Below, piece by piece: positions 47,712 through 60,290 of a stretch of DNA of 60,648 nt. The position numbers and the translations under genes were made by a program. Origin of the DNA: a virus (lineage: Duplodnaviria; Caudoviricetes); the IMG/VR virus record IMGVR_UViG_3300022602_000101, positions 1 through 60,648 of that record; one strand, 5' to 3'. The stretch's first letter is position 1. The number at the start of each line of letters is the position of its first letter. The notes under the pieces were generated by a model. It worked only from the letters and a program-made list of their open reading frames with translations, searched no databases and was not told where the DNA came from.

Positions 47712-48194
47712 TCAAGCACATTTAATTTGTGCAAAATGGTGTGCAATGAGTAGCCCATCAGCATCACCATGTGCCTTAATGCTAGCAGTAAACTTGGGGT
47801 ACATCTGACACCCACGTAGCATGCTGGCTTTCTTTAGCTCACTAGACCCCTTTATTTGGCCAAGGACGGGCACTTGCCATGTTTTGCTATCAACTACCTC
47901 ATAACCAATCCTAAGCAGTTCTAGGGCTATTAAAACGGCTTCAAATGACCTTTGTGCTGGCAATACTGCATTAAGGAACTGACCAGTAAATGGTCGCTCC
48001 ACATAAGCAAAGATGTCCTTCTCCTTGTTATGTGCCAATATATCCATGAACTTGGGTACATCGATACGTTTGATGTGCTTACCAGCTTTGCCGAGTAAGC
48101 TATCCTTGATTGGCATCTCATCAAATACGACCCCATTAGGGCCAATGATGGCGAAGCTACCTGATGTTCCATTGTCTATTCCAATTATTGTCAT
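47712..48194 (-). CDS. RuvC-like Holliday junction resolvase
   Basis: IIGIDNG, AYVERP, KTWQ, DADGLLIA. Confidence 0.8.
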   Translation of the reverse strand: MTIIGIDNGTSGSFAIIGPNGVVFDEMPIKDSLLGKAGKHIKRIDVPKFMDILAHNKEKDIFAYVERPFTGQFLNAVLPAQRSFEAVLIALELLRIGYEVVDSKTWQVPVLGQIKGSSELKKASMLRGCQMYPKFTASIKAHGDADGLLIAHHFAQIKCA

Positions 48195-57014: not shown

Positions 57015-57287
57015 ATGAAATACGAATATAACATACAACTAGAAGCATCAGAAACAAGTGGCAAACTAAGCGAAGATCTCTACAAGAGCTACACGCTTTA
57101 TGCCACCGTTAACAACAAACCATCAAAAACTGTGACCATTGGTATCATTGCCATCAATGATGGTGAGTTTCAGGTACAATTCACTGGTAGCTCAAAAGAT
57201 TATGGTATCAGTAGCAACGGCATCAATGTTATTGCTAACATGCTTGATACATTAAACATTGCACTGCAAGCAGTTAACAGGAAATAA
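57015..57287 (+). CDS. hypothetical protein
   Basis: 90-aa ORF in the operon. Confidence 0.6.
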   Translation: MKYEYNIQLEASETSGKLSEDLYKSYTLYATVNNKPSKTVTIGIIAINDGEFQVQFTGSSKDYGISSNGINVIANMLDTLNIALQAVNRK

Positions 57288-57288
57288 C

Positions 57289-57558
57289 ATGAGTAACAAA
57301 ACAAAAATGAGTACACTGTTTTTTGCAGTGAGTGATGATAATGAAAACAACTTTACCATATGGCAACCATTGAAAAAAAGCAAAGTTGGTAGTGACATTA
57401 AGTTAGGTGAATTGGTGCTAGTGGAAATGTTAAACAAGTACATATTCTTTCCAGAAAGAATTGATAACAAACCCATAGAAATACCACATAACTTGCAACA
57501 TGAGATAGATTGCTTGAGAAAACACATACAAGCAGTTGTAGACGAAGACATTGTGTAA
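57289..57558 (+). CDS. hypothetical protein
   Basis: MSNKTKMSTLFFAV..., last gene of the operon. Confidence 0.6.
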   Translation: MSNKTKMSTLFFAVSDDNENNFTIWQPLKKSKVGSDIKLGELVLVEMLNKYIFFPERIDNKPIEIPHNLQHEIDCLRKHIQAVVDEDIV

Positions 57559-57629
57559 CATTATGAACCAAAATCGACCAAGAAGATCACCGATGTAATA
57601 AAGACATCACATATGGTACACTAACACAC

Positions 57630-57776
57630 ATGTATCTCATAAAAACAATTGGTCTCATGCTACTAGCCATCCTTGCCGTCATACTCGACATAACTATCTG
57701 GCTACTCATGGTGCCAAGGGAAGGTGTCATGGTTCTTGCTAACTGGATCAATAAGGACACAACGGACGACATGTGA
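57630..57776 (+). CDS. 48-aa membrane protein (not in the ORF track)
   Basis: MYLIKTIGLMLLAILAVILDITIWLLMVP...; TG-G-TACACT-N7-ATG leaderless-type start. Confidence 0.5.
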   Translation: MYLIKTIGLMLLAILAVILDITIWLLMVPREGVMVLANWINKDTTDDM

Positions 57777-57860
57777 CAGGGTGTCACATTGCACCATGCC
57801 TCATGCAACAACTGACAACATGTGCTTGACACATGCGGACACATGCGGACATTGTGGCAC

Positions 57861-57890
57861 TTGACACATGCATCATGTTTCTGATACCTT
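57861..57890 (+). promoter_or_regulatory. sigma70-like promoter of the candidate ncRNA
   Basis: TTGACA-N18-TACCTT with an extended TG; predicted start ~57897. Confidence 0.6.
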
Positions 57891-57896
57891 GCTGGT

Positions 57897-58262
57897 ACAT
57901 CAGGCGTGATGGTGGATCAATTTGTTAGTGTTTGAGTGCCCCACATGATCACGCCCCATGTGGGGCTTTCTATTGTCACCTGAAACGACAATACAAACTG
58001 ATCCAACCACCTGTGCAAGGTGTAACGGTCTTGATGTTAGTAGCGGTGCCACCTTGACCAATCTGTTAGACCAAGTGGCTTAATTCATGGCGAAACCCGT
58101 TAGGGGTTTGTGAGTCGCTACATGCAGGGTCAATTGAGCCAATACCGCCCCATATGCATGTAGGTGTTCATCAGGCTTCCTAGTCCGATTTGCAATAGTG
58201 ATGCACACTCACCTGTCATGGGTGAGTTGTGCCCATGCAACTAACCCTGAACCGAAATGCAC
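57897..58262 (+). ncRNA. candidate structured non-coding RNA
   Basis: Nested helices 57897-904/58030-37, 57911-25/57993-58008, 57938-47/57957-66, 57971-77/57987-93; further domains 58043-58148 and 58203-58232; no plausible ORF. Confidence 0.55.
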
Positions 58263-58269
58263 TAGTGAA

Positions 58270-58615
58270 TCATGGTACATGGTACAATGTGCCAATACCA
58301 ATATGAACCAATCCAATTGGTACAATGTGCCAATGCACCAATGTGAACCAATGTGAACCAATGTGCCAATCCAATCCCAATCCAATGTGCCAATGTGAAC
58401 CAATCGAATTGGCCAATCCAATTCGTATCCAATCCATGTGGCAATCCCAATCCATGCAATGTGGCATTACCAATGCCAATTTGCAATAGTATCAATCTCA
58501 TACCATGGGATACATGTGAGACTGATACTTGATACTAAGGATACATTGTCACCATTGTCACCAATAACCAAATGAACCAATGAACCAATCTAATAAGAAC
58601 CAATGAGCCAATGGA
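58270..58615 (+). repeat. CCAAT short-repeat array 1
   Basis: About 25 CCAAT copies by hand count, with units such as GTGAACCAAT and GTGCCAAT. Confidence 0.9.
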
Positions 58616-58677
58616 TCTCACGTGGGTGCGAGCGTGCGTGCGAGAATGTGCCCGTAGCATGCGTACCATTGGGGCAC

Positions 58678-58707
58678 AAAAAAGGACACACCTTGCGAGT
58701 GTGTCCC
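58678..58707 (-). terminator. intrinsic terminator
   Basis: Minus strand GGACACAC-TCGCAAG-GTGTGTCC-TTTTTT. Confidence 0.85.
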
Positions 58708-58723
58708 GTTGTGTGGTGTGGTG

Positions 58724-58960
58724 TTAACGTATTTTGTTAAGTTCCCAAGCAAGGTGCTTGCTAAGGTTCTTCGTAAGCATGATTTTCAATTCCCAACGTG
58801 AGTATTCGTTGTGGTCTAAATGGTAGATACGTGAATTCCACCTGTTAATGTAATCGGTGCATTGTTGACTTGTACCAACGAATGCAACGGAGTACCTTGG
58901 TTTGCAACCATAGTAGTATCTTTTTGCTCGTACAGTGTGTGTTAATGAATCTGTATTCAT
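58724..58960 (-). CDS. hypothetical early protein
   Basis: MNTDSLTHTVRAKRYYYG...YHLDHNEYSR. Confidence 0.6.
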   Translation of the reverse strand: MNTDSLTHTVRAKRYYYGCKPRYSVAFVGTSQQCTDYINRWNSRIYHLDHNEYSRWELKIMLTKNLSKHLAWELNKIR

Positions 58961-59220
58961 GTTAGTGTTTTTTATAATTGTTGTTAATTTGTAAATACGT
59001 TTTGTTAAATCTTTCAAACTCTCCCGAAGTATCGTTAATGCTGACACCATTAGTTTTAAAATAGATGTTTACGTCTTTTAAATAATCGTACGCTCGTTGC
59101 CTATCGTATAAATCTTTTAAACTTTCAATGTAGTTTAAAGCCTCATCTACTGTTTTAATTTGATACAGATTTTCAATACTCAATATACCATATTCTATTT
59201 TCATGTTAGTGTTTTTTATA
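58956..59220. repeat. 21-bp perfect direct repeat flanking one gene
   Basis: TTCATGTTAGTGTTTTTTATA at 58956-58976 and 59200-59220. Confidence 0.9.
58962..59204 (-). CDS. hypothetical protein (repeat-flanked cassette)
   Basis: 80-aa AT-rich ORF ending YKKH, like its upstream neighbour. Confidence 0.65.
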   Translation of the reverse strand: MKIEYGILSIENLYQIKTVDEALNYIESLKDLYDRQRAYDYLKDVNIYFKTNGVSINDTSGEFERFNKTYLQINNNYKKH

Positions 59221-59850
59221 TGTTACGTTAAAAGCATCTGTGAAGCATAGGCGACACTCTAAGCATTTGTTGCCTTGCTTGCTACTAGGACAAGTGTAGT
59301 CAGATTCACTTACGCTTGAAACTTGCACTCCTAATCTCTTTGCAAGTGCCGTTGGTGCTAATCCGTCAACCTTGTAGCCACTTAAGCGAATGACTAAGTT
59401 GCTAGGCACCTTGTTTCCTGACTCAATGTACTCCCTAACGAATCCGTATTCCTTAGTAGGTAACCAATGTTTTAGGTGCGAAGTGCCTTCACAAATTGCC
59501 ACTATCTTTTTAAGATGATCAACGGATTGCAAATCGCCCGAATCAAACCATCTAAAATAGCCACTCTTTTCAAAACGTTTCAGTGTCTCAATCATTGCCT
59601 CAATGTATAATGGCGAGTACAGTGCCTGTAGTCGTCTTGCCATGGCGTTTTGTGTTGTAGGCATGCGATAAAAATTTGTACATGCGTAGCATTCATGACA
59701 CACTGTACCTTCTGTTTGTGCTAGCTTGCTACCTGTTTTGCAATGCTCTGCAGAGATACTCCATGAGTAGCAAGGCATCTTGGAAGGCTCGGACAAACCG
59801 CCCGTCAATTCATTCAATTGTTTTTTTGTTAGTTTTTTATTGGTTATCAT
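59206..59850 (-). CDS. GP88-like Cys-rich protein
   Basis: LSEPSKMP, CKTG...VCHECYA, YFRWFDSGD, HWLPTKE, NLVIRLS, CP...CLECRLC; start moved to MITNKK. Confidence 0.75.
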   Translation of the reverse strand: MITNKKLTKKQLNELTGGLSEPSKMPCYSWSISAEHCKTGSKLAQTEGTVCHECYACTNFYRMPTTQNAMARRLQALYSPLYIEAMIETLKRFEKSGYFRWFDSGDLQSVDHLKKIVAICEGTSHLKHWLPTKEYGFVREYIESGNKVPSNLVIRLSGYKVDGLAPTALAKRLGVQVSSVSESDYTCPSSKQGNKCLECRLCFTDAFNVTYKKH

Positions 59851-59860
59851 AAGAACCTGT

Positions 59861-59903
59861 AGCATGAAACAATTGTTTACATGATTCAAGCACTAAATTA
59901 TAA
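59861..59903 (-). promoter_or_regulatory. promoter with TTATAATTTAGTGCTTG box
   Basis: Minus strand TTATAATTTAGTGC-TTGAAT-N17-CATGCT. Confidence 0.55.
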
Positions 59904-59939
59904 TAAAGTAATGCTAATATACCTTATAAGAATCTCTAA

Positions 59940-60056
59940 TGATCCAATATGAACCAATGCGAATTGTTCCAATCGAATCCAATTGTACCAATCCAATGCG
60001 AATCGAATTGCAATCCAATCCAATCCAATCCAATCGAATCCAATGCAATCTCAATC
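59940..60056 (+). repeat. CCAAT short-repeat array 2
   Basis: About 11 CCAAT plus CGAAT/GCAAT variants; shares CCAATATGAACCAAT with array 1. Confidence 0.9.
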
Positions 60057-60245
60057 CGTTTTTTTCCATTTGGTTCTTGCTATGATGAAGTGGCACACAC
60101 TAACATTGCCTTGAGTCAGTTACATAGTTTCTTGATTCATTGTATATTGTCATTCATAAGAACATGCCACATTGCCGTCACAAGTAGTGTGGCATTGTTC
60201 ATTTGTGGCTCATGCGTGCACGCGAGAGTGAAGCATGAGGGCATG

Positions 60246-60272
60246 AAAAAACCCTGCTTGTTAGGCAGGGTT
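60246..60272 (-). terminator. intrinsic terminator
   Basis: Minus strand AACCCTGC-CTAACAA-GCAGGGTT-TTTT. Confidence 0.8.
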
Positions 60273-60290
60273 GCAATGTGTGGGTGAATC

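Follow-up and report, generated by a model that had tools for sequence, protein, structure and literature searches.

A stretch of a freshwater phage genome, 57861-58262 on the plus strand, appears to be a stand-alone gene for a structured non-coding RNA of about 370 nt, belonging to a family that Rfam 15 does not hold and that occurs in at least three lineages of freshwater phages. A short sequence near the predicted start of the RNA (the 5' box) is perfectly complementary to the apical loop of a terminator-like hairpin in all five variants found, although the matching letters differ from one variant to the next. The RNA is thought to consist of a variable 5' module, whose box-loop pairing may set the ratio of short to long forms, followed by a conserved 3' core of unknown function. 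In the absence of any transcript evidence, the start site, the termination and the read-through are all predictions. That this is a real, transcribed, structured RNA family with a genuine box-loop pairing can be held with considerable confidence, the complete reading with short and long forms is somewhat more likely than not, and an action of the pairing on termination remains tentative.

Genomic setting

The sequence analyzed (the window) is a linear IMG/VR virus record of 60,648 bp (IMGVR_UViG_3300022602_000101), estimated to be 86% complete, whose two ends are joined across about 870 nt by a related contig (L083). It encodes a large terminase (phrog_2, E 5.7e-18), collagen-like tail fibres, a primase/helicase, an exonuclease and a DNA-polymerase exonuclease subunit. 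Near-identical DNA was found only in freshwater and lake DNA runs. The element lies in a 940-nt gap between converging genes: small plus-strand ORFs end at 57776, and a minus-strand operon of three genes at 58724-59889, including a PF17338/GP88 protein, ends at a terminator at 58707-58683. There is no same-strand ORF downstream in the window or in L105, a distant relative described below, and both sit at a junction of convergent genes.

A sequence-only reading had proposed a promoter-driven phage ncRNA or attenuator switch with a loop-to-5'-end pairing and possibly short terminated and long read-through forms, and its main idea holds. All 24 motif strings that it named are at the stated places, including TTGACA at 57861-66, an 18-nt spacer, TACCTT at 57885-90, ACATCAGG at 57897, CTTGATGT at 58030, GCCCCACATG at 57938 with CATGTGGGGC at 57957, ATCACGCC at 57948 with GGCGTGAT at 57903, and TATTGTC at 57971 with GACAATA at 57987. 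Some of its individual helices, however, did not hold up. The 8-bp closing helix between the 5' end and CUUGAUGU (58030-58037), which counts a G-U pair, is matched or beaten in 870 of 2000 shuffles, and its last base, 58037, is T only in the window, being A in the other 12 sequences that reach it and in 4 of 4 sequencing runs. The helix GGUGGAUCA-UUUGU/ACAAA-UGAUCC-ACC exists only in one of two alleles (allele A), its 5' arm being replaced in allele B while the 3' arm stays. Moreover, GGCUUAAUU/AAUUGAGCC has no counterpart in the distant relative L103, and GCGGUG/UACCGC has a possible 5-bp counterpart there that would cross another helix, H7.

Folding energy, known families and coding potential

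The region 57897-58262 folds at -123.4 kcal/mol, better than shuffled sequences (z -2.94, 0 of 100 shuffles as good). The excess lies in 57897-58037 (z -3.22, 2 of 200), whereas 58038-58290 alone is ordinary (z -0.75, 49 of 200), and the minus strand folds as well or better over the whole stretch (z -4.03). Whole elements in two distant relatives also fold well, with z -4.15 for L103 and -5.43 for L130, the latter from only 20 shuffles. G-U pairs in H2 and H3 of allele B and in H3 and H7 of L103 fit the plus strand only.

No Rfam 15 family reaches its gathering threshold anywhere in the window. In 57500-58800 there are four matches with E 1.8-6.6, all below gathering, the best scoring 19.2 bits against a threshold of 39. 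In L130, L103 and L116 (the same contig as L105) only tRNAs pass, with sub-threshold ar14 and YrlA. ARAGORN finds no tRNA or tmRNA in the window. No ORF is conserved across lineages: the only cross-lineage blastp match is 21 aa over the conserved nucleotide blocks, and that 123-aa frame in L103 is shut in L105. No description of this RNA was found in the literature, although the search was not exhaustive and did not extend to supplements.

Close and distant relatives

Among 80 loci fetched through the GP88 protein, a single one (L002) showed nucleotide homology. DNA patterns revealed more in IMG/VR, and a metagenome scan gave 13 loci, some being the same contig present in two collections (L082/L093, L084/L088/L002 and L085/L096). 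Among 15 sequences, 11 of them distinct, the cassette 57870-57995 exists in two alleles, A (7, including the window) and B (8), which are about 73% alike over the 97 nt that BLAST aligns. In contrast, the flanking -35, the -10 and 57996-58290 are 98.6-99.7% alike. The 3' part, 57996-58290, has only 4 variable sites in 295 (58036, 58037, 58195 and 58217), while neighboring coding DNA is 82-97% alike in 150-nt windows. No linkage was found between the cassette allele and the flanking sequence, and assemblies from four sequencing runs break at the cassette borders.

Two diverged copies, L103 and L105, were detected by nhmmer (E 2.4e-7 and 1.2e-6) among 17 loci fetched through the primase/helicase, their primase being 71% identical to that of the window. 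In both, the element follows tRNA-Thr, tRNA-Gly, an ORF and tRNA-Gln on the same strand and again faces converging genes. A pattern built from two shared blocks then gave a third lineage, L130, confirmed at E 1.9e-12, on a G+C-richer contig whose 670-aa ORF looked terminase-like by eye. Other searches added nothing: blastn of 57780-58720 against a phage GenBank collection gave no match, an exact hairpin pattern gave 0 hits in IMG/VR, and BLAST of the L103 element against five whole related records gave 0 of 5. Profile nhmmer over 12 stretches of four of those records and the 17 primase loci, and over all 136 loci (1.28 Mb), returned only the known lineages. Further pattern scans found nothing new, one hit (L117) being a chance match without further similarity and six contig hits being chance (nhmmer E 0.16 or worse). 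A scan for terminators whose loop matches upstream sequence was too noisy to find new members, with 102 hits from 413 hairpins, many in A+T-rich or palindromic loops.

Promoter and variable 5' module

The element begins with a sigma-70-type promoter that is conserved as a promoter and not merely as sequence. The -35 hexamer TTGACA (57861-57866) is identical in alleles A and B, and the extended -10 (TG-n-TACCTT, 57882-57890) is kept as part of TGATAC(C/A)TT...GGTACAT, although the 18-nt spacer between them is replaced in allele B without any change in length. The start is predicted at A57897. A TTGAC hexamer lies 42-43 nt before the 5' box in all five variants, although in L130 the TTGACC at the right distance is not accompanied by a convincing -10.

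The predicted transcript starts with a small hairpin, H1 (57898-57911, CAUCA-GGCG-UGAUG), which is present in all five variants with different sequences. The 5' box, GGCGUGAU, occupies 57903-57910 (transcript positions +7 to +14) and is the perfect complement of 57948-57955, in the 9-nt loop of H2, a terminator-like hairpin (57938-57971) with a 10-bp stem followed by UUUCU. A terminator-like site was called at 57953-57966. H2 is kept in three lineages with different sequences, with stems of 7-12 bp and U-tracts running from UUUCU, which is weak, in allele A to UUUUUUCUUUU in L103 and L105; the U-tract is stronger in B, L103, L105 and L130. The box starts at +7 in every variant, and the five box-loop pairs, GGCGUGAU/AUCACGCC in A, GUGCCGU/ACGGCAC in B, and GGUGCAAC/GUUGCACC, GUUAACGGC/GCCGUUAAC and CGGGUGGA/UCCACCCG, comprise 8, 7, 8, 9 and 8 nt of perfect Watson-Crick pairing. 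Shuffling the upstream sequence 20,000 times gave such a match with p of 0.0017, 0.0021, 0.0027, 0.0013 and 0.0014, and the complementarity is far beyond chance once relatives are added. The H2 loop is exposed in every variant (unpaired probability 0.74-1.0), whereas the box lies in or next to the loop of H1 (0.27-0.86), and about half of it is buried in H1 in A and L130 (mean 0.27 and 0.38). No consistent third copy lies downstream.

Inside the variable cassette, an island, TTTGTTAGTGTTTG (57921-57934), is identical in A and B, but its role is uncertain. H3 (57971-57993, UAUUGUC/GACAAUA) follows H2 and is kept in L103 and L130. Between A and B, 7 of 46 predicted pairs changed on both sides with pairing kept, 5 of them among the 7 pairs of H3. 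H4 (58008-58022, CACCU/AGGUG) is invariant in the clade, so no covariation is available, and hairpins of other sizes lie at this place in L103 and L130.

Conserved 3' core

Across the three lineages, the 3' core contains the invariant blocks UUAAUUC(C)AUGG, GUGAG, CAGGYUUCCYAKUCC, AUGGGUGAGKUGU and, exactly 9 nt later, AYUAACCC, between which helices sit at the same places with different sequences. H5 (58048-58079, GCCAC(C)UUG...CAAGUGGC) lies just 5' of the UUAAUUC block and corresponds to GGCAGGG/CCCUGCC in L103 and AUCAGGCU/GGCCUGAU in L130. The segment 58080-58115 comprises the block UUAAUUCAUGG, the H6 hairpin (58093-98/58104-09) and the block GUGAGU, H6 being ACGC/GCGU with a GAAA or GCAA loop in L103/L105 and UGCCA/UGGCA with a GCAA loop in L130. 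H7 (58118-58163) is a 9-bp helix, CUACAUGCA/UGCAUGUAG, enclosing a small hairpin; L103 has CGUAGAACG/UGUUCUAUG, and L130 has CCGUAGC/GCUACGG around an insert of about 150 nt. The block CAGGCUUCCUAGUCC follows at 58172-58187. The H9 hairpin (58203-58232) holds the invariant AUGGGUGAG-K-UGU block (58218-58230), and its lower stem covaries (GCACA/UGUGC, GCGAUA/UGUCGC, CGCACA/UGUGCG). Alternatively, GGGUGAG could pair with the downstream CUAACCC as a pseudoknot, but both blocks are invariant. The last block, A-Y-UAACCC, lies within 58240-58262, and homology with other lineages ends near AAUGC. The 3' end of the RNA is not defined in the window, whereas L130 has its own strong terminator about 90 nt further on.

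MAFFT could not align the 5' half of L130 or keep helix arms in register, and no covariance model was therefore built. Fixed windows around the anchors were searched, with 1000 shuffles of the 3' window, and six helices recur in allele A of the window, L103 and L130 with combined Fisher p of 5.6e-6 (H2), 9.4e-4 (H3), 2.8e-3 (H5), 0.013 (H6), 1.1e-4 (H7) and 1.2e-3 (H9). These figures are generous, because the windows were chosen after the sequences had been seen. Moreover, only three lineages are known and the 3' core hardly varies within the window's clade; covariation there rests on two or three comparisons.

Possible mode of action and similarity to known RNAs

RNA-level covariation downstream of H2, with no promoter between H2 and the 3' core, means that polymerase must pass H2, while a hairpin plus U-tract kept in every lineage suggests that some polymerases stop there. 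A short RNA (about 75 nt in the window, 75-111 nt among the variants) and a long RNA of about 370 nt or more are thus likely, with H2 inferred to be a leaky intrinsic terminator. The box-loop pairing, across 40-70 nt, may help to set the ratio of the two forms or the fold of the long form, acting in cis as a pseudoknot or kissing contact, or in trans between the short RNA and nascent chains. Each lineage, and each of the two co-existing alleles, would thereby have a private pairing code. Co-existing, freely recombining alleles fit a specificity code better than a purely internal contact does, but this is inference. However, pairing to a hairpin loop does not by itself prevent the hairpin from forming, so a role in termination is not implied by the anatomy, and there is no downstream gene for an attenuator to regulate.

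Large structured phage RNAs of unknown function, such as GOLLD and ROOL, are an open problem. They are phage-borne, often next to tRNA genes, several hundred nucleotides long, and include covarying loop pairings (PMC12286853). All copies of the present element lie on viral contigs, with tRNA-Gln directly upstream in L103 and L105, although the window itself has no tRNA. No match to the GOLLD or ROOL models was found even at E up to 10 in 57500-58800, or up to 1 in the relatives; the copy in the window is smaller, has a clear promoter, and its covarying pairing joins the 5' end to the loop of a terminator-like hairpin. In the same-strand phage antisense RNAs P4 CI, P1/P7 c4 and Gifsy-1 IsrK, complementary elements lie on one transcript and control acts through a terminator and through short and long isoforms (PMC4825925 for IsrK and P4 CI). 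Here, no Rfam C4 match was found, there is one partner site rather than two, no regulated same-strand genes lie downstream, and a large conserved 3' core is present that has no counterpart in those RNAs. The phi29-type packaging RNA (pRNA) also appears to have two mutually complementary loops that covary between related phages, but no Rfam match was found, one of the partners here is a terminator-like hairpin loop, and the large terminase and genome of about 61 kb are unlike the phi29 type. In the control of plasmid replication by kissing-loop antisense RNAs (ColE1 RNA I/II, R1 CopA/CopT, pT181 attenuation), loop-loop pairing of 6-8 nt probably acts as a specificity code between close relatives, coupled to a terminator in pT181; the partners there come from opposite strands, whereas here both lie on one strand of one transcript and no replication gene follows.

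Alternative explanations

It is possible, although less likely, that the RNA is self-assembling, with the 5' box of one molecule pairing head to tail with the H2 loop of another to give dimers, rings or larger RNA-only assemblies around the conserved 3' core, as in phi29 pRNA or the ROOL, GOLLD and OLE complexes. The freely swapped cassette would then act as a bar-code keeping the RNAs of co-infecting relatives apart, and the element would be a compact cousin of the ROOL and GOLLD assemblies. Two mutually complementary elements do sit in one RNA and covary freely, the H2 loop is exposed, the two alleles co-exist in the same lakes unlinked to their flanks, and GNRA loops are present in L103, L105 and L130. 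The phage-borne layout, next to tRNAs in L103/L105, with a conserved 3' part and a variable 5' part, is also described for GOLLD, and pairings first seen by covariation in ROOL and GOLLD proved to be intermolecular (PMC12286853). However, nothing in the present data distinguishes pairing within a molecule from pairing between molecules, no Rfam model of pRNA, ROOL or GOLLD matches, the linker of 37-70 nt is long enough for an intramolecular contact, and a hairpin followed by a U-tract is more simply read as a terminator. A more doubtful proposal is that the short RNA is a trans-acting antisense regulator of the neighboring convergent operon, its conserved single-stranded island (57923-57933) pairing over the start codons of two minus-strand genes, with the 3' part a separate matter. 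The island is the only stretch kept between A and B inside the cassette, and the exact 10-mer AAACACTAAC occurs 3 times in 60.6 kb, once as the complement of the island and twice directly before the AUGs at 59204 and 58962. A one-mismatch copy lies before the GP88 gene, and both target sites are kept in the B-allele contig L084. Nevertheless, about two 11-mer matches to a 79-nt RNA are expected by chance in 60 kb, the two targets are copies of one 38-nt repeat and so count as a single event, and L103, L105 and L130 show no comparable complementarity at start codons. A ranking of targets by duplex energy gave implausible values and was not used. This reading explains neither the box-loop covariation nor the conserved 3' core.

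A DNA-level element such as a replication origin or packaging signal, in which the helices would be by-products of protein-binding inverted repeats, is unlikely. CCAAT arrays lie at 58270-58620 and 59930-60060, the site is a junction of convergent genes, both strands fold equally well, and L130 also has tandem repeats nearby and lies next to the terminase-like ORF. However, L103 and L105 have the element but no such arrays, G-U pairs would be C-A mismatches on the other strand, five unrelated box-loop sequences would require five matching changes in protein specificity, and the box keeps a fixed distance from the promoter. Least likely is that the region is only the intrinsic terminator of the upstream plus-strand operon, followed by spacer DNA or a small unannotated protein gene. 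Besides the terminator-like site, a 41-codon frame (57958-58083) is open in both alleles, but the promoter is conserved between the operon and the hairpin, the covariation extends well beyond the hairpin, and 57996-58290 is nearly invariant in comparison with the coding flanks. The 41-codon frame has no Shine-Dalgarno sequence, starts inside the 3' arm of the hairpin, and has 5 of 7 residues changed exactly where H3 pairs are kept.

Repeats, start regions and promoter-like motifs around the RNA gene

Two arrays of irregular CCAAT-type repeats, both C-rich on the plus strand, are found at 58270-58620 and 59930-60060 of the window, with 18-20 CCAAT per 300 nt against about 0.3 expected. The first array follows the RNA gene, and the second follows a strong promoter-like site at 59876-59904 that matches 11 of 12 consensus positions. 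The arrays vary by insertions and deletions among close relatives and are absent next to the element in L103 and L105, two loci carrying diverged copies of the element. It could be hypothesized that they are iterons, rut-like sites or repeat RNAs. Just upstream of the RNA promoter, at 57826-57860, a second TTGACA at 57826 is followed by a direct repeat, (A)CACATGCGGA twice, which is kept in both cassette alleles and may be an operator. Moreover, the motif (G)CTTGACACAT recurs at intergenic sites, at 151, 57826 and 57861 on the plus strand and at 47715 on the minus strand, and may mark a class of early promoters.

Two minus-strand genes share the start region AUAAAAAACACUAAC-AUG (58961-58970 and 59205-59214, minus strand), with no Shine-Dalgarno sequence. 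The 10-mer of this start region is the exact complement of the conserved island 57924-57933 in the RNA, and these are the only three exact copies in the window. A one-mismatch copy (59828-59837) precedes the GP88 gene. The internal AUG at 58962 is the likely true start of the 108-aa ORF.

Mosaicism and features of related contigs

Further ORF-poor stretches rich in CATG/ACATG words lie around the contig ends, at 1-500 and 60100-60290, and the related contig L083 shows that the ends are joined by about 870 nt that the window lacks. When 59208-59832 of the window was compared with L083:7717-8424, the GP88 gene region was found to be replaced in L083 by unrelated or very diverged sequence, while both sides stay 92-99% identical, which is a mosaic gene swap. 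In addition, the stretch 57250-57650, holding a 99-aa ORF, is unlike every related contig, whether A-type or B-type.

Repeats were also observed in more distant sequences. A more distant relative (G004, 66 kb) has GATTGCTCAATCGGATT-type repeats near a tRNA-Thr (locus L129, 1190-1300) but no copy of the element. In L130, the contig representing the third lineage, tandem repeats (CCCTTGTT-type, and a unit of about 22 nt, GTGAGCACTCAGTGAGGACTCC) lie just upstream of the element, between it and the putative terminase-side genes (L130:1700-2000, minus strand). A sub-threshold Rfam hit to the alphaproteobacterial sRNA ar14 (28 bits against a threshold of 58.8, E 0.12) covers the 5' module of this copy (L130:1546-1662, minus strand), and its H2 loop holds a CCUCC anti-Shine-Dalgarno-like word that the other variants lack.
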